This document shows positions 1 through 6,697 of a stretch of DNA of 6,697 nt, piece after piece. Each line of letters begins with the position of its first letter. Position 1 is the first letter of the stretch. Below the pieces are notes generated by a model. The model was not told where the DNA came from, did no database searches, and saw nothing but the letters and a program-made list of their open reading frames with translations. Origin of the DNA: a virus (lineage: Duplodnaviria > Heunggongvirae > Uroviricota > Caudoviricetes); IMG/VR virus record IMGVR_UViG_2671180296_000001, positions 1 through 6,697 of that record, one strand, 5' to 3'. The position numbers were made by a program, and so were the translations under genes.

Positions 1-752
1 TTAAGGGAAAAACCACCTCACAGTATCTGGCCTCGGTGGTGGTGGGTAACCTGCCGCCGCGCCCGTTCAATATACGGATGCGCAGGATGACGCCGGACAG
101 CACCACAGACCAGCTGCAGAACAAAACGCTCTGGTCGTCATACACCGAAATCATCGATGTGAAACAGGGCTACCCGAACACGGCACTGGTCGGCGTGCAG
201 GTGGATTCGGAGCAGTTCGGCAGCCAGCAGGTGAGCCGTAATTATCATCTGCGCGGGCGCATTCTGCAGGTGCCGTCGAACTATAACCCGCAGACGCGGC
301 AATACAGCGGTATCTGGGACGGAACGTTTAAGCCAGCATACAGCAACAACATGGCCTGGTGTCTGTGGGATATGCTGACCCATCCGCGCTACGGCATGGG
401 GAAACGTCTTGGTGCGGCGGATGTGGACAAATGGGCGCTGTATGTCATCGGCCAGCATTGCGATCAGTCGGTGCCGGACGGTTTTGGCGGCACGGAGCCG
501 CGCATCACCTGTAATGCGTACCTGACCACACAGCGCAAGGCGTGGGATGTGCTCAGTGATTTCTGCTCTGCGATGCGCTGTATGCCGGTATGGAACGGGC
601 AGACGCTGACGTTCGTGCAGGACCGACCGTCGGATAAGGTGTGGACCTATAACCGCAGTAATGTGGTGATGCCGGATGATGGTGCGCCGTTCCGCTACAG
701 CTTCAGCGCCCTGAAGGACCGCCATAATGCCGTTGAGGTGAAACTGGATTGA
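1..752 (+). CDS. J: Tail tip host-specificity protein J (lambda gpJ-like), internal segment; 5' end lies upstream of the window; frame ends at a premature TGA (750-752) after a 1-nt insertion
   Basis: Frame 0 is open from the window edge (first full codon at 3-5) and reads [76 protein letters not shown]...KDRHNAVEV, which matches the middle of lambda J as I recall it. Lambda continues ...[15 protein letters not shown]; here an AAA run at 741-743 (AA in lambda) shifts the frame. Confidence 0.85.
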
Positions 753-3241
753 CCCGAATAACGGCTGGGAGACGGCGACAGAGCTTGTGGAGGACACGCA
801 GGCCATTGCCCGTTACGGTCGTAACGTCACGAAGATGGATGCCTTTGGCTGTACCAGCCGGGGGCAGGCCACACCGCGCCGGGCTGTGGCTGATTAAAAC
901 AGAACTGCTGGAAACGCAGACCGTGGACTTCAGCGTGGGTGCCGAAGGGCTTCGCCATGTACCGGGCGATGTCATTGAAATCTGCGATGATGACTATGCC
1001 GGTATCCGCACCGGCGGGCGCGTGCTGGCGGTAAACAGCCAGACCCGGACGCTGACGCTCGACCGTGAAATCACGCTGCCATCTTCCGGCACCACGCTGA
1101 TAAGCCTGGTTGACGGGCAGGGGAGTCCGGTCAGCGTGGAGGTTCAGTCCGTCACCGACGGCGTGAAGGTGAAAGTGAGCCGTGTTCCTGATGGCGTTGC
1201 TGAATACAGCGTATGGGGGCTGAAGCTGCCGACGTTGCGCCAGCGCCTGTTCCGCTGCGTGAGTATCCGTGAGAACGACGACGGCACGTATGCCATCACT
1301 GCCGTGCAGCATGTACCGGAAAAAGAAGCCATCGTGGATAACGGGGCGCACTTTGACGGCGACCAGAGCGGCACGGTGAATGGTGTCACACCGCCAGCGG
1401 TGCAGCACCTTACCGCCGAAGTCACCGCAGACAGCGGGGAGTATCAGGTACTGGCCCGCTGGGACACGCCGAAGGTGGTGAAGGGCGTGAGCTTCATGCT
1501 TCGCCTGACCGTGGCAGCGGACGACGGCAGTGAGCGGCTGGTCAGCACAGCCCGGACGACGGAAACCACATACCGCTTCAGACAACTGGCGCTGGGGCGT
1601 TATATGCTGACGGTCCGGGCTGTAAATGCCCGGGGGCAGCAGGGTGATCCGGCGTCGGTATCGTTCCGGATTGCGGCACCGGCAGCGCCTGTCACTATTG
1701 AACTGATACCGGGGTATTTTCAGATAACGGCAGTCCCGCGTCTTGCGGTGTATGACCCGACGGTACAGTTTGAGTTCTGGTTCTCGGAAAAACGGATTGC
1801 TGATATCAGGCAGGTTGAAACCACAGCCCGCTATCTTGGCACGGCGCTGTACTGGATAGCTGCCAGTATTAATATCAGGCCGGGCCATGATTATTACTTT
1901 TATATCCGCAGTGTGAACATCGTCGGTAAATCAGCGTTTGTGGAAGCTGTCGGCCGGCCGGTTAATGATGCTGAGGTGTATCTCAATTTTTTTGAAGGGA
2001 AAATAAACAGCACCCTGCTGGGGCAGGAGCTGAACGATCGTATTAATGCCTCGGCATTGCGCAGTGAAGTTGAGCAACTGGAGGATGAGATCAATCAGCA
2101 GATAGAGAGTGATATTGCTGAAGTGACCCAAAAAATCGGGGAGACAGAAAACAGCCTCACACAGCTGGTTGCGAAAAAAAATGATGAGCTGTCACTGGGT
2201 ATATCACAGGTGAGCCAGAGAGTGGATAACGTCAGCAGCGAACTCACGCAGACGGTCAGTCAGAGTAATGAGGAGAATGCACGCCAGATAGCGCAGGTTC
2301 GCCAGTATGTGGATCAAAAAAGCAGTGAAATCATGACGACAACGGACCAGAAGCTGGGAGATCAGGAGGCCACCATCCAGCAGATACAAAAGGTTCAGAC
2401 GGACACCAGTAATAACCTGAACAGTATGTGGGCCGTGAAACTGCAGCAGATGCAGGATGGTCGCCTTTATATTGCGGGTATCGGTGCCGGTATTGAGAAC
2501 ACCCCTGACGGCATGCAGAGTCAGGTGCTGCTGGCGGCAGACAGGATTGCGATGATTAATCCTGCAAATGGCAACACAAAACCGATGTTTGTTGGTCAGG
2601 GTGATCAGATATTCATGAATGAAGTGTTCCTGAAATATCTGACGGCTCCCACCATTACCAGCGGCGGTAATCCTCCTGCATTTTCCCTGACACCGGACGG
2701 AAAGCTGACCGCTAAAAATGCCGATATCAGCGGTAACGTGAATGCGAACTCCGGGACGCTCAACAACGTCACGATAAATGAGAACTGTCAGATTAAGGGG
2801 AAACTGTCAGCCAATCAGATTGAAGGCGATATTGTCAAAACGGTGGGAAAATCCTTTCCGAGAAATGGCAGTTATGCCAGCGGTACAATAACGGTCACTG
2901 TGTACGATGACCAGGCTTTTGACCGTCAGATAGTAATCCCACCCGTTCTGTTTCGCGGTGGTAAGCATGAAAACTTTAACAGCAACAACCAACAGTCATA
3001 CTGGTACTCAACCTGTAAGCTGCAGGTGCTGAAGAACGGACAGGAAATCTTTCAGCAACCCGCGACGGATGTCAGCAGGGTATTTTCATCTGTCATCGAT
3101 ATGCCTGCCGGACACGGGCATGTCACCCTGACTTTCAATGTTTCTTCATATGGTGCTAATAACTGGACGCCAACGACCAGTATCAGCGACCTTCTTGTTG
3201 TCGTGATGAAGAAATCAACAGCCGGTATCAGTATCAGCTGA
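749..3241 (+). CDS. J: Host-specificity protein J, continuation and C-terminal receptor-binding region (frameshift-interrupted; the ORF-track start at 749 is a TTG and not a real start)
   Basis: From about 872 this frame reads [45 protein letters not shown]...[47 protein letters not shown]..., near-colinear with lambda J. Between 748 and 870 the J-homologous reading ([41 protein letters not shown]) is in the third frame. After about residue [13 protein letters not shown] the protein diverges into a long coiled-coil and a different C-terminal domain, ending at TGA 3239-3241. Confidence 0.85.
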
Positions 3242-3258
3242 ATTTTATAACCCCAATA

Positions 3259-3286
3259 CGGGCGCCAGAAATGGCGCTTTTTTATT
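3259..3286 (+). terminator. Rho-independent terminator downstream of J
   Basis: Stem GCGCC (3262-3266) pairs with GGCGC (3273-3277) around loop AGAAAT, followed by TTTTTT (3278-3283), 18 nt after the J stop. Confidence 0.65.
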
Positions 3287-3307
3287 GCAGAAAAGCGAGA
3301 GGTAATT

Positions 3308-3907
3308 ATGCGTAAATTATGTGCTGTTATTCTGTCTGCAGTAGTCTGGCTGGTCGCCGCTGGTACGCCAGCGAGTGCAGCAGAGCATCAGTCCACACTA
3401 AGCGGCGGGTATCTTCAGTCCCATACTGATATGCCCGGAAACGATGACCTGAAGGGCATTAACGTGAAATACCGTTATGAGTTTACGGACACGCTGGGGC
3501 TGGTGACGTCATTCAGCTATGCAGGAGACAAGAATCGCCAGCTGACCCGTTACAGTGATACCCGCTGGCATGAAGATTCCGTTCGTAACCGCTGGTTCAG
3601 CGTAATGGCGGGGCCGTCTGTGCGCGTGAATGAATGGTTCAGCGCGTATGCGATGGCGGGTGTGGCTTACAGCCGTGTGTCGACTTTCTCCGGGGATTAT
3701 CTCCGCGTAACTGACAACAAGGGGAAAACGCACGATGTGCTGACCGGAAGTGATGACGGTCGCCACAGCAACACGTCTCTGGCGTGGGGGGCTGGCGTGC
3801 AGTTTAACCCGACCGAATCCGTGGCCATTGATATTGCTTATGAAGGCTCCGGCAGTGGTGACTGGCGCACTGACGGTTTCATCGTGGGTGTCGGTTATAA
3901 ATTCTGA
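3308..3907 (+). CDS. lom: Lom-like outer membrane protein (Ail/Lom family 8-strand beta-barrel; lambda 'moron' gene)
   Basis: ATG at 3308 is preceded by GAGAGG (3297-3302). The N-terminus MRKLCAVILSAVVWLVAAGTPASA is a signal peptide. The C-terminal half ...GINVKYRYE...SVMAGP...SAYAMAGVA...IDIAYEGSGSGDWRTDGFIVGVGYKF matches lambda Lom as I recall it, including the terminal aromatic residue typical of beta-barrel OMPs. Position directly after J is as in lambda. Confidence 0.9.
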   Translation: MRKLCAVILSAVVWLVAAGTPASAAEHQSTLSGGYLQSHTDMPGNDDLKGINVKYRYEFTDTLGLVTSFSYAGDKNRQLTRYSDTRWHEDSVRNRWFSVMAGPSVRVNEWFSAYAMAGVAYSRVSTFSGDYLRVTDNKGKTHDVLTGSDDGRHSNTSLAWGAGVQFNPTESVAIDIAYEGSGSGDWRTDGFIVGVGYKF

Positions 3908-3933: not shown

Positions 3934-3960
3934 AGCCCGCCGGTTCAGGCGGGCTTTTTT
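3934..3960 (+). terminator. Rho-independent terminator downstream of lom
   Basis: Perfect 8-bp stem AGCCCGCC (3934-3941) / GGCGGGCT (3948-3955) with loop GGTTCA, running into a T6 tract (3955-3960). Confidence 0.8.
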
Positions 3961-3971
3961 GTGGGGTGAAT

Positions 3972-4982
3972 ATGACAGTAAAGATTTCAGGTGTCCTGAA
4001 GGACGGAGCGGGTGAGCCTGTCGTAAACTGTGCGATTGAATTGCGTGCCAGAAGAACCAGTCCGACAGTTGTGGTTAATATTGTGGCAACCTGTCTTACG
4101 GGAAGTGATGGCGGGTATACTATTAATGCTGAGCCGGGATTTTATGATGTATTTTTGTCCCGCTCAGGGCATCCTCCTGTAAAGGCGGGGGAAATTTATG
4201 TTGCACCGACAGATGAGCCGGATACGCTGAATGCTTTTCTGGATGCACCAAAGGAGGGTGATTTACGCCCTGAGGTAATGAAGCGTTTTGAGGAAATGGT
4301 AAATACCGTTGTTCGCTTGTCTGAGCAGGTGGTCAGTGACAGGGAGAGAGCAGAAACAGCGGCTGATGATGCAATCAATGCAGCAACATCTGCGGCGGTT
4401 AGTAAGGATGAGGCAGAAGAGCTAAAAAATCAGACACAGCAGAGCGCCGAAGCTGCAGCCGGAAACGCACAGCAGACCGCGCAGGATGTGGAGGCAACGG
4501 TCACCGCCCGTGATGATGCGGAACGTTTTGCGGGTGAGGCAGAAAACAGCGCACAGACATCAGGCACAGCGCGGGACGAATCAGTCGATGCCGCCGAACG
4601 TGCCCGCCTTTATCATAATGCCGCATCATCAGCTGCAACCAGCGCGGAAAATGCAGCAAATGCTGCACTCGGGCATGAAAATAACGCTGCCGAATACGCC
4701 CGACAGGCTAAAGACAGCCAGGATGCAGGTGCAGACAATGCGCAGGAAGCGAAACAGTACAGGGATGAGGCGCAGCAGATAGTTGATGACCTGAATGCAA
4801 CAAATGCCAGCACGACAGAAAAAGGTCTGGTGCAACTGTGTAGTGATACGGACAACGACAGCGATGAACTGGCTGCCACGCCAAAGGCTGTCAAAGCCGT
4901 CATGGACGAAACGAAAACAAAAAGCGCCACTGGACAGCCCGGCCTTCACCGGCACCCCAACCACCCCAACCCCACCGGATGA
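3972..4982 (+). CDS. stf: Side tail fibre protein Stf, N-terminal segment (frame 0); frame is lost near 4914-4923 and runs out of frame to TGA 4980-4982
   Basis: MTVKISGVLKDGAGEPVVNCAIELRARRTSPTVVVN... matches the lambda Stf N-terminus (MAVKISGVLKDGTGKPV...) as I recall it. The ORF-track start at 3966 is GTG; the ATG at 3972 aligns with the lambda start. An Ala/Gln/Glu-rich shaft region follows, then ...TEKGLVQLCSDTDNDSDELAATPKAVKAVMDET, the conserved Stf motif. The tail after 4923 (SATGQPGLHRHPNHPNPTG) is out-of-frame translation. Confidence 0.85.
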   Translation: MTVKISGVLKDGAGEPVVNCAIELRARRTSPTVVVNIVATCLTGSDGGYTINAEPGFYDVFLSRSGHPPVKAGEIYVAPTDEPDTLNAFLDAPKEGDLRPEVMKRFEEMVNTVVRLSEQVVSDRERAETAADDAINAATSAAVSKDEAEELKNQTQQSAEAAAGNAQQTAQDVEATVTARDDAERFAGEAENSAQTSGTARDESVDAAERARLYHNAASSAATSAENAANAALGHENNAAEYARQAKDSQDAGADNAQEAKQYRDEAQQIVDDLNATNASTTEKGLVQLCSDTDNDSDELAATPKAVKAVMDETKTKSATGQPGLHRHPNHPNPTG

Positions 4983-5346
4983 TGCCGCCGGTCTGGAAGC
5001 AGCGAACGCAGCGTTTGTGCGCAAACTGCTTGCTGCGCTGGTTGGCTCATCGCCGGAAGTTCTGGACACCCTGAACGAGCTGGCAGCGGCGCTGGGCAAT
5101 GACCCGAACTTTGCGACCTCAATGATGAATGCGCTGGCAGGCAAACAACCGCTTAATGACGTCTTAACGGCAATCAGCGCACTGACGCAACGGGCAGATA
5201 ATCTTCTGTACTTCAATACAGACGGGAATGCCTCACTGTCTCTGCTGTCAGAGAAGGGCCGCGCATTACTGGCGCATGACACGGCTGAAGCCATGCGCAC
5301 GGAGCTTGAGCTGAACGCGGCCTGCGACGATGGAACCCCAGAGTGA
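4795..5346 (+). CDS. stf: Side tail fibre protein Stf, second segment (frame 1); homology-supported only from about 4905 onward
   Basis: From about 4921 this frame reads KAPLDSPAFTGTPTTPTPPDDAAGLEAANAAFVRKLLAALVGSSPEVLDTLNELAAALGNDPNFATSMMNALAGKQPLN..., colinear with lambda Stf (KAPLDSPALTGTPTAPT...NTLNELAAALGNDPDFATTMTNALAGKQP). The ORF-track portion 4795-4900 is an overlapping out-of-frame read. Ends at TGA 5344-5346 just after a CCCC run (5336-5339). Confidence 0.75.
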   Translation: MQQMPARQKKVWCNCVVIRTTTAMNWLPRQRLSKPSWTKRKQKAPLDSPAFTGTPTTPTPPDDAAGLEAANAAFVRKLLAALVGSSPEVLDTLNELAAALGNDPNFATSMMNALAGKQPLNDVLTAISALTQRADNLLYFNTDGNASLSLLSEKGRALLAHDTAEAMRTELELNAACDDGTPE

Positions 5347-5950
5347 TATCCGTGACGCACACCGGGCAGGCTGGCCCCTGTCCGGGATGTATGGGTTTGG
5401 ACAGGCATTCACCAGAGCCGAAGCTCTGTCATTTAACGGACAGGCTGATTTCGTTATATGGCTGCAGACAGTCACACCGGGGCGTTATGCGGTCAGTATT
5501 GCGGACTCTTCCACGCTGCTGAAGGGGACCACGAAATTTAACGGTATCATTGATGTGATGTGGTCACCGTCTGATAACGACGAATCAGACACGGCGCGTA
5601 AATTCAAAACGCTGCTGTACTACAACCAGTATTACGAGGATGAGCACAACATACATTGCATGCGTTATCATTACAGTGATAACACCTGGACCGCAACATC
5701 AAACATGATTGTGTATGACGGCAACTCCCTGGCATATCTGATGTCCTCAACCGCCGGTAATGGTCCGTTCTCATATTACCAATACCCGGCACTTGGCGTG
5801 CCGATTATGGCGGTATATCAGGGAGAAAGTTTTGGTGAAAATGCTTCTCTGGGACTCGGTGATACTGTGCCGGGTTCCCGTCTTGGTCCTCTGGCCATGA
5901 GTGCACGGTTAGTGATACAGGGACATACGCATCCTCACCGCAGGTTGTGA
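5330..5950 (+). CDS. stf: Side tail fibre protein Stf, third segment (frame 2): distal, putative receptor-binding part
   Basis: Long open frame with protein-like composition (…GQAFTRAEALSFNGQADFVIWLQTVTPGRYAVSIADSSTLLKGTTKFNGIIDVMWSPSD…YQGESFGENASLGLGDTVPG). Removing one C from the CCCC run at 5336-5339 joins it in-frame to the previous segment (…AACDDGTQSDIRDAHRAGWPLSGMYG…). The last residues (…QGHTHPHRRL) look out of frame. Confidence 0.65.
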   Translation: MEPQSDIRDAHRAGWPLSGMYGFGQAFTRAEALSFNGQADFVIWLQTVTPGRYAVSIADSSTLLKGTTKFNGIIDVMWSPSDNDESDTARKFKTLLYYNQYYEDEHNIHCMRYHYSDNTWTATSNMIVYDGNSLAYLMSSTAGNGPFSYYQYPALGVPIMAVYQGESFGENASLGLGDTVPGSRLGPLAMSARLVIQGHTHPHRRL

Positions 5951-6077: not shown

Positions 6078-6649
6078 ATGAAAATCAGAGCGGTGAAAGG
6101 TATCAGAAACGCACATTATCTTGAAAATGGTGCGGTTGACTGCGAGGTGTTATTTGAAGGTGAAACGAGTTCGTCCTGTATACCGCCATACAGGATGATA
6201 TGGCCCCGACAGGCCAGCATGTCTGGCAGGAGCTGCAAAGCGGGAAATGGGGCGAAATCGCCCCGTTCACCGTCACGCCGGAACTTATTGCAGCGGCAAA
6301 GGATGCCAAAAGGCGGGAAATTGAGGCATGGCGAGACAGTCAGGAAAACGTTGAGTTTATTTTCACGTTTGATGGCCGTCGTTTTGATGGCGGAAAAACC
6401 TCGCAGTCACGCCTTGCCCCCGTGGTTGCAACAGCACAGGCCGGACTGCTTCCGGAGGGTTTTTTCTGGACTGATGCGGATAATAACAACGTCGTACTGA
6501 CCAGGGAGAAACTTATTGCGCTGAACGATGCCATGATGGTGGCCATGGTGACGGAGGGTTTTAAAATCCACGAACGTCAGCGGGAGATGAAAGAAGTGTT
6601 AAACACTCTGGAGGATTTAGGTGAGATACGAGCATTTAATGTTGAGTAA
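6078..6649 (+). CDS. Small conserved prophage protein immediately downstream of stf (tail-fibre-assembly position; function unknown); interrupted by a 1-nt frameshift near 6165-6170
   Basis: RBS GAGGA (6066-6070) sits 7 nt upstream of ATG 6078. Frame 0 reads MKIRAVKGIRNAHYLENGAVDCEVLFEGET, then degenerates into Arg/Ser-rich low-complexity text. Frame 2 opens at 6164 and reads NEFVLYTAIQDDMAPTGQHVWQELQSGKWGEIAPFTVTPELIAAAKDAKRREIEAWRDSQENVEFIFTFDGRRFDGG…LGEIRAFNVE up to TAA 6647-6649. The ORF-track entries 6063-6500 and 6200-6649 are the two halves of this one gene. It does not resemble lambda Tfa as I recall it. Confidence 0.6.
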
Positions 6650-6697
6650 CGAATAGATTGCAGTGAGTGTTTTTGGTATCTGAAAAACGAAGCTCCG

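Follow-up and report, generated by a model that had tools for sequence, protein, structure and literature searches.

A mosaic distal region in a lambda-type tail-fibre gene J with a long, predicted helical shaft and a phage 21-type receptor-binding domain

Gene J in IMG/VR record IMGVR_UViG_2671180296_000001 most probably encodes a lambda-family central tail fibre whose distal region consists of four segments with different nearest relatives and whose tip probably binds LamB. The segments would be a lambda-like hub and FNIII body; a long shaft of five diverged 29-residue units (153 amino acids [aa], ~101 aa more than in lambda); a conserved beta-prism straight fibre; and a phage 21-type Ig-like receptor-binding domain. 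The stretch of DNA analyzed (6,697 nucleotides [nt], here called the window) opens with the distal part of a lambda-type tail-tip gene built from known interchangeable modules. Because J gene mosaicism and host-range module exchange are already textbook knowledge for lambdoid phages, and because the exact 447-aa distal J sequence is already present in NCBI, this overall picture adds little by itself. The shaft length in the compared Escherichia coli prophage J genes spans, in 29-residue units, an approximately threefold range (53, 81, and 153 aa) in proteins that are otherwise nearly identical, which makes the series a convenient natural test of the effect of length on adsorption and triggering.

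A J gene with two junctions

The 3′ 3.2 kb of the lambdoid tail-tip/central-fibre gene J occupies nt 1 to 3241, as judged from its domain order and its relatives; all features described here lie on the plus strand. The window enters the gene at approximately nt 464 of J, and the stop codon is at 3239 to 3241. Relatives without interruption encode 1,232 to 1,233 aa. Pfam domains are found in the order Phage-tail_3 (hub), Ig_J, Ig_J_second, Phage_Tail_Tip, and Ig_GpJ_C, all above their cut-offs, which is the order of the lambda TipJ/gpJ central tail fibre, with the shaft between Ig_J_second and Phage_Tail_Tip. The gene order J-lom-stf-DUF4376 is that of the relatives and agrees with lambda TipJ synteny. 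NCBIfam model NF049904 (lambda_TipJ) scores 1302.6 against a curated cut-off of 1950, with only 789 of ~1,232 residues scorable in a gene that is both truncated by the window and interrupted.

Lambda gpJ (NP_040600; PDB 8IYK, 8XCK, and 8XCJ) belongs to the same family and has the same domain order. The protein is 99% identical to lambda J over nt 3 to 1000, 94% over 1001 to 1700, and 90% over 1701 to 1960, and this identity collapses from approximately nt 1960, within the second Ig-like/FNIII-2 domain (1685 to 1993; Pfam PF24489, residues 272 to 374 of the translation starting at 872). A preliminary description of this DNA, which placed the end of the similarity to lambda J at about 1950, was thus accurate on this point. 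It had also reported that the DNA becomes more AT-rich from about 1960 and had taken this as a mark of the junction. The GC profile is indeed not flat. However, the maximum likelihood change point is at nt 1689 (GC of 0.607 before and 0.488 after), preceding the loss of protein similarity by ~270 nt and coinciding with the beginning of the second Ig/FNIII domain, and a step at the same homologous position is found in lambda (0.600 to 0.532) and phage 21 (0.604 to 0.491), as well as in PhiR49_2 and both E. coli relatives (09-00049 and 06-00048). The step is therefore a feature common to J genes and not a marker of a junction specific to the window, which weakens the GC argument considerably. 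It is highly improbable that the low-GC distal region was recently gained from a lower-GC donor with the step as the recombination point. The step itself is significant (likelihood ratio of 45.9; 200 shuffles gave at most 13.3) and is accompanied by a drop in GC3 from ~0.75 to ~0.55, but nt 1689 falls within sequence that retains at least 90% identity to lambda, and the real identity breakpoints are at ~1920 to 2040 and ~2800 to 2825.

DNA identity profiles reveal a nearest neighbor that differs by segment: E. coli 09-00049 is 100% identical over 1500 to 2520, E. coli 06-00048 is 98 to 100% identical over 1980 to 2820, and phage 21 is 93 to 100% identical over 2820 to 3240. These differences, along with the many combinations of shaft and receptor-binding domain found among relatives, uphold the earlier view of the distal part of J as a mosaic produced by module exchange, although that view, with its single junction, overlooked a second one. 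In the identity profiles, this second junction lies at 2800 to 2845, where the fibre meets the receptor-binding domain, and contains the motif GDIVKTV. The type of receptor-binding domain switches at approximately nt 2800 to 2825, where identity to 06-00048 drops from 98 to 100% to 63 to 82% and identity to phage 21 climbs to 93 to 100%.

The central straight fibre (beta-prism; Pfam Phage_Tail_Tip) was placed at 2372 to 2830 by Pfam and alignment. A conserved core after the shaft had been noted previously, and the peptide quoted for it maps to 2558 to 2734; protein identity to lambda is 88% over 2601 to 2800. This island (~2600 to 2800) likely serves as a homologous-recombination substrate between the module for the shaft and that for receptor binding. 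Homologous crossovers within conserved flanking sequence, at the end of FNIII-2 and in the straight-fibre core, could shuffle both kinds of module, presumably among co-resident lambdoid prophages.

The long shaft and its repeat units

By alignment to lambda numbering, an extended alpha-helical shaft (AHS) of 153 aa at 1967 to 2425 is homologous to residues 809 to 861 of lambda gpJ (53 aa), the bounds of which were set by cryo-EM (PMC11101478); the shaft of phage 21 has 81 aa. The sequence missing from lambda J (~101 aa; 2045 to 2359 in the alignment) falls between lambda residues 835 and 841, and ~73 aa of it are also missing from the J of phage 21 (UMO75436; GenBank OL657228). Phage 21 and the window share the straight fibre and the final 29-residue unit of the shaft, with only 11 substitutions from residue 880 onward, but the medium shaft of phage 21 is ~73 aa shorter, and over 2400 to 2820 the two DNAs are only 83 to 97% identical. 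The 2045 to 2359 insert had no megablast match in the phage collection; a distant-mode search gave 72.8% identity to PhiR49_2 and PhiR40_1. These two encode the long form (1,232 to 1,233 aa), with a shaft in PhiR49_2 that is 67% identical, and the prophage J proteins of 09-00049 and 06-00048 (1,232 to 1,233 aa) have the same long shaft at 98 to 100% protein identity. All of these long-form proteins differ from the window in carrying receptor-binding domains of other types (68% and 84% identical).

Segment 1967 to 2425 is proline-free and rich in Gln (13%), Glu (11%), and Ser (10%), and it is predicted to be helical. The preliminary description had proposed a long, heptad-like, Gln/Glu/Ser-rich coiled coil at about 1990 to 2450, and the shaft peptide that it quoted is located at 2057 to 2335. 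The composition and the predicted helicity stand, but the repeats are not heptads. Autocorrelation is dominated by a lag of 29 residues (z = 7.3), followed by lags of 11 (z = 3.9) and 7 (z = 1.1), and the hydrophobic period is 3.65, compared to 3.5 for a canonical heptad coiled coil, which was rejected as a description of the shaft on the basis of this period and the lag-7 value. Autocorrelation and register instead define five tandem 29-residue units (2027 to 2461), located at 2027 to 2113, 2114 to 2200, 2201 to 2287, 2288 to 2374, and 2375 to 2461, with sub-periods of 11 and 22 residues within the repeat and a core pattern of I-x-Q-V-x-Q-x-V...L/I. The last unit is common to all J proteins, and in a relative, P0121, the array reaches eight units with the register unchanged.

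Protein identity between units is only 10 to 38% (2 to 11 of 29 residues), and Tandem Repeats Finder detected no tandem repeat in the DNA of the shaft region. The array is therefore old, and recent tandem duplication was rejected as the origin of the long shaft. A Pfam search with the shaft alone gave only sub-threshold matches to generic helical families (e.g., Apolipoprotein, with 17.5 bits versus a cut-off of 90). An AlphaFold2 (AF2) monomer model, which was used only for secondary structure and a nearest-fold check, has a mean pLDDT of 50 and places a helix over the shaft at 40 to 53; helicity thus remains a prediction. The nearest solved folds to this model are the gpJ central fibres of lambda and A8.

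[quoted passage not shown] 2026 preprint, PMC12874032). In that non-contractile tail, a helical trimeric segment of 163 aa lies directly upstream of the beta-prism, compared to 153 aa with predicted helix in the window, and both have an 11-residue periodicity. The F7 strand motif SxSxxMxxLxS is not enriched in the window's shaft (1 match versus a shuffle mean of 0.79), and a fold-switch motif of the F7 pyocin type was therefore discarded for the shaft.

Across J genes, the spacing between GKSxFVEA and MWAVK forms distinct classes (57, 85, 158, and 256 residues); phage 21 has a spacing of 85 and the window one of 158. Each of the three main classes (57, 85, and 158) is paired with several types of receptor-binding domain, the three long-shaft J genes in E. 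coli 1.2741 carry three different types, and the phage 21 domain occurs naturally on both medium and long shafts. Thus, in E. coli prophages, the length of the shaft varies independently of the type of receptor-binding domain. The long shaft is present in 32 of 5,426 complete E. coli genomes. Among GTDB species representatives, no long shaft was found; that scan recovered only medium-shaft relatives, in Escherichia and Shigella, and distant J-like proteins in Mixta and Pseudomonas.

It is conceivable, if unlikely, that the number of 29-residue units is a tunable shaft module, independent of the receptor-binding domain, that sets the reach of the fibre or the size of a refolding "spring." The former could matter, for example, for reach through the O-antigen on smooth pathogenic E. 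coli, and the latter would concern the part that, once the receptor is bound, opens the tail tip. In lambda, the shaft element flips and partly refolds to beta structure upon receptor binding, opening the tail tip (2024 work). If wholly helical, the extra ~101 residues would lengthen the fibre by ~15 nm, and they would also enlarge the shaft element acting in tail-tip opening. The natural occurrence of the phage 21 domain on two shafts offers a ready comparison for the fold-switch model of non-contractile tails.

The receptor-binding domain and its probable receptor

The Ig-like receptor-binding domain at 2834 to 3238 (PF12421, E = 1.1e-37) is of the phage 21 type. Its divergence from lambda was described earlier as a last ~130 residues unlike the LamB-binding end of lambda J; identity is indeed only 47% (with 10 gap columns), but the two domains belong to the same Pfam family and align end to end. 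Of the final 146 residues, 144 match phage 21 J. The two differences, A1032S and V1060I, are both A8-type residues, and the equivalents of phage 21 I1025 and V1026 are unchanged from the wild type. LamB is the native and sole receptor of phage 21 (GenBank OL657228); in the laboratory phage 21 for which LamB use was demonstrated, J additionally differs from the GenBank sequence by E1071K.

The non-LamB receptor that had been predicted from this divergence was not supported, since the domain is nearly identical to that of a phage whose native receptor is LamB. A host-range module for another outer-membrane protein, such as OmpC, is very unlikely here. The 47% identity to lambda would fit such a module, as would the match of both A1032S and V1060I to the A8 type, which binds OmpC and, like the domain of 06-00048, is 82% identical to that of the window; furthermore, the single substitution I1025T is sufficient to open OmpC use in phage 21 J. 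However, that enabling position is wild type in the window, and at the other sites that distinguish phage 21 from A8, the window sides with phage 21 (~21 of 23 positions overall), so the domain is not of the A8 type. Among solved structures, the gpJ chimera of A8 (Brodel et al. 2024; PDB 9WCA, plus 9WCB with OmpC) scores highest for the distal region, and its receptor-binding domain belongs to the same sub-lineage (~82% identical), but it binds OmpC and has the short shaft of lambda.

The J protein would form a trimer with a tip that probably binds LamB as that of phage 21 does, judging from the near-identity of the two sequences. The phage 21 domain is itself ~46% identical to that of lambda and still uses LamB; thus, divergence from the lambda C terminus need not mean a new receptor. 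It is a poor predictor, since a domain with ~46% identity uses LamB and one that is 82% identical to the window's uses OmpC, and receptors of J proteins are therefore better called against typed references (phage 21, A8, and lambda).

Gene integrity and downstream neighbourhood

The window's copy of J is frameshifted twice, and the J protein may not be made from it. A 1-base insertion at 743, where both E. coli relatives have AA and the window AAA, shifts the J frame to a stop at 750 to 752, and comparison with relatives places a second, in a short homopolymer, at 871. The open reading frame listed as 749 to 3241 consequently follows the J frame only after nt 871. It is somewhat unlikely that J is the nonfunctional remnant of a defective prophage, with a distal module that is unexpressed and serves only as recombination stock. 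Such decay would account for the early stop in J, for the splitting of the downstream stf into three open reading frames by 1-bp indels at 4919, 5321, 5355, and 5375, and for further 1-bp indels at 5906 (near the end of stf) and 6166 (in the DUF4376 region). However, at least five of the eight indels are in short homopolymer runs (743, 871, 4919, 5321, and 5375) and none exceeds 1 bp, a pattern that is the usual signature of sequencing error. Furthermore, the protein between indels is 94 to 100% identical to intact relatives, the corrected frame has no in-frame stops, and J is likewise fragmented in the related draft genome of E. coli 1.2741. A contig of that genome is 97.6% identical to the window, and the best complete E. 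coli genome has 97.6% identity across 94% of it.

Downstream of J, a terminator-like hairpin followed by a T run is found at 3260 to 3289, the place at which a terminator is annotated in phage 21. It is followed by an intact lom gene at 3308 to 3907, encoding an Ail/Lom outer-membrane beta-barrel protein of 199 aa (PF06316, E = 1.2e-121). An identical Lom protein is encoded on six contigs that are 96 to 97% identical to the window.

Mosaic structure of the distal J gene

The window opens within J (1 to 3241, plus strand), the lambdoid tail gene for the central tail-fibre protein, of which the 3' 3.2 kb is present; about 463 nt of J precede the window start. The family and domain order of the encoded protein are clear. 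After two inserted bases were taken out, its identity to lambda J was 99% over nt 3 to 1000, 94% over 1001 to 1700, and 90% over 1701 to 1960. The stretch from 1961 to 2350 gave only 32 aligned columns and 98 gap columns, followed by 51% identity over 2351 to 2600 and 88% over 2601 to 2800; identity over the final 146 residues is 47% (10 gap columns). This profile bears out three features noted in the preliminary description: the departure from lambda near 1960, the additional helical segment, and the conserved core that follows it (2601 to 2800).

DNA identity to relatives, slid along J in 60-nt bins, shows where the modules meet. The J gene of a prophage of E. coli 09-00049 is 100% identical over 1500 to 2520, falling to 52 to 70% by 2820 to 3180, and that of E. 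coli 06-00048 is 70 to 95% identical over 1680 to 1980, 98 to 100% over 1980 to 2820, and 62 to 82% beyond. Both lambda and phage 21 drop from about 90% to 63 to 72% at 1920 to 2040, and phage 21 climbs to 93 to 100% over 2820 to 3240. Since the nearest neighbor changes from segment to segment, with three different ones in all, the distal part of J contains at least two junctions. The first (about 1920 to 2040) coincides with the start of the helical shaft, roughly where it had been placed beforehand, whereas the second (about 2800 to 2825), which falls precisely where the straight fibre gives way to the receptor-binding domain, had been missed. Nevertheless, the mosaic itself, with its extended helical segment and non-lambda C terminus, had been seen correctly, as these alignments and segment-wise DNA identities confirm. 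The conserved island between the junctions (about 2600 to 2800) would be an obvious substrate for homologous exchange.

The base composition of J is not flat, as had been observed, but its step is nonspecific as evidence for a junction. The maximum-likelihood change point (0.607 to 0.488 GC; likelihood ratio of 45.9, versus a maximum of 13.3 in shuffles) lies at nt 1689, where the second Ig/FNIII domain begins and the sequence is still about 90% identical to lambda. A change point is found at the homologous position in lambda (0.600 to 0.532) and phage 21 (0.604 to 0.491), and the GC drop falls in the same 150-nt bin in all five comparison J genes. The step is therefore an older feature, common to these J genes in their distal third, and does not mark the junction of the window.

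Among the retrieved relatives, a set biased toward the query, shafts of one length are joined to several receptor-binding domains, named here after their carriers. The shaft class of the window (spacing of 158 residues) occurs with phage-21-type (9), A8-type (4), and 09-00049-type (18) domains; the 85-residue class occurs with phage-21-type (77), 09-00049-type (2), and other domains; and the 57-residue class occurs with A8-type (3), 09-00049-type (1), and other domains. Three long-shaft J genes occur in the draft genome of E. coli 1.2741, and no two of them share a receptor-binding type. Together, these combinations support independent assortment of shaft and receptor-binding modules, probably among coresident prophages. 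A contig of this strain (AEZI02000023.1; 1 to 7100 and 9000 to 13691) contains the identical distal J, split into three called genes, and its lambdoid tail genes are followed directly by a P2/186-like prophage (integrase, CI repressor, Fil, and GpA).

The 447-residue distal protein matches five NCBI E. coli entries (P0001 to P0005) at 100% identity, and none of the complete E. coli genomes of the collection has the exact distal combination at >93% over 1700 to 3300. The distal J is therefore a new combination of modules already known and deposited, in a very well studied family, and its value lies chiefly in the natural length series that the trigger shaft offers.

A 29-residue repeat in the helical shaft

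In lambda, binding to LamB flips the shaft by about 180 degrees, residues 841 to 861 become beta strands, and the FNIII domains are freed so that the tip opens (PMC11101478). The extra sequence of the window falls between lambda residues 835 and 841, within this shaft, which has grown from 53 to 153 residues (nt 1967 to 2425). It is rich in Q, E, and S and lacks proline, and an AF2 monomer model renders it as an almost continuous helix at low confidence (pLDDT of 40 to 53; mean of 50 overall); no Pfam family covers it. The extended coiled coil proposed in the preliminary description thus stands as a predicted helical segment, but not as a heptad-like one: the hydrophobic period is 3.65, and the strongest BLOSUM autocorrelation is at lag 29 (z = 7.3); lags 11, 18, 22, 40, 51, and 58 also exceed z = 3, and lag 7 reaches only z = 1.1. 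The repeat is a hendecad-like unit of 29 residues. Five units lie in register (nt 2027 to 2461), with hydrophobic residues at positions 1, 4, 8, and 15, and the last of them is common to every J protein; lambda has essentially that one and phage 21 has two. No tandem repeat was detected in the shaft at the DNA level, and the units are 10 to 38% identical to each other in protein sequence, which argues that the array is old.

The 269 retrieved relatives sort into discrete classes by the distance from the FNIII-2 motif GKSxFVEA to the fibre motif MWAVK: 57 residues in lambda, 85 in phage 21, 158 in the window, and 256. The longest class is represented by a single protein, P0121, with eight units in perfect 29-residue register. 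In this J-like protein (538 residues, a metagenome/genome representative), two of the eight units are exactly identical, which could reflect either recent duplication or misassembly, and the C terminus is short and of a different, non-Ig type. An E. coli fragment of phage-21-type J (P0029, 466 residues) has an exact internal duplication of about 45 residues that runs from the last shaft unit into the beginning of the straight fibre (ending MQSQV, twice). Remoter J-like proteins of other bacteria have helical regions several hundred residues long, so that lambda represents a short extreme rather than the norm. Of 5426 complete E. coli genomes, 32 have long-shaft DNA (1961 to 2350), at 57 sites in total and at most 5 in any one genome; food, cattle, and human isolates and E2348/69 (O127:H6) are among the carriers. 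J-like sequence in general occurs in about 4600 to 5000 of the 5426.

If helical, the approximately 101 extra residues would add about 15 nm to a fibre whose length in lambda, between the FNIII domains and the tip, is 29.7 nm (PMC11101478). The added length may give the fibre more reach (through O-antigen, for instance) or may enlarge the element that refolds. [quoted passage not shown]

Receptor-binding domain and probable receptor

The preliminary description held the C terminus to be unlike that of lambda. The low identity of the last 146 residues bears this out, but the domain still belongs to Pfam PF12421, the J C-terminal receptor-binding domain (E = 1.1e-37), and blocks of conserved residues can be aligned with lambda along the whole domain (FPR, SGT.TV.V.DD..FDRQ, YS.C.L.V..NG, DMPAG.G, and KK...GIS). 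Its closest counterpart is that of phage 21, with 144 of 146 residues identical (differences A1032S and V1060I), and the I and V at the fibre/receptor-binding junction (1025 and 1026 in phage 21, where I1025T opens the way to OmpC) are kept. LamB is the sole receptor of the phage 21 ancestor. Use of LamB is therefore favored as a fairly probable reading of the sequence, and the earlier prediction of a receptor other than LamB is contradicted by the best comparison available. By analogy with lambda structures and phage 21 genetics, J would trimerize, its tip loops would bind LamB, and binding would be passed via the beta-prism to the shaft.

Several observations qualify the assignment to LamB. 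The sublineage sits near OmpC use: the A8-type domain, which binds OmpC (Brodel et al. 2024; PDB 9WCB) and is the type present in E. coli 06-00048, is 82% identical to that of the window. In addition, both A1032S and V1060I introduce A8-type residues. Furthermore, the laboratory phage 21 shown to be LamB dependent differs from the GenBank record (OL657228) by G18903A, computed to give E1071K inside the receptor-binding domain; the window has E at the equivalent position, as in GenBank phage 21.

Gene content and integrity

Downstream of J on the plus strand lie lom (3308 to 3907), the side-tail-fibre gene stf (from 3966), and a DUF4376 gene. This order is matched in the relatives from E. coli 09-00049 and 06-00048, where gpJ is intact and annotated at 3699 nt (1232 residues) and 3702 nt (1233 residues), respectively; J has 1132 residues in lambda, 1160 in phage 21, and 1232 in PhiR49_2. 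Compared with both E. coli relatives, the window has single-base insertions in short homopolymers at 743 and 871 (plus strand), which put 128 nt out of frame and introduce a stop codon (750 to 752). Consequently, the ORF at 749 to 3241 is in the true J frame only past 871, and J as given is interrupted, through either sequencing error or pseudogene formation. Six more 1-bp indels follow J. Four of these (4919, 5321, 5355, and 5375) split stf, a single 696-residue ORF in the relatives, into three (3966 to 4982, 4795 to 5346, and 5330 to 5950); another (5906) lies near its end, and the last (6166) is in the DUF4376 region, where the gene has a 1-bp deletion close to its start.

Terminator-like GC hairpins with T runs follow J (3260 to 3289) and lom (3934 to 3965); such sites number 3 in 900 nt, versus 0.8 expected, and a terminator is annotated in phage 21 at the position matching 3260 to 3289. 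At the right end (6500 to 6697), the closest E. coli relatives are only 78 to 94% identical, a drop that suggests a further module boundary past the DUF4376 gene. A minus-strand ORF of 353 residues (827 to 1888) lies within the GC-rich part of J; we interpret it not as a gene but as a side effect of the high GC3 of the sense strand.
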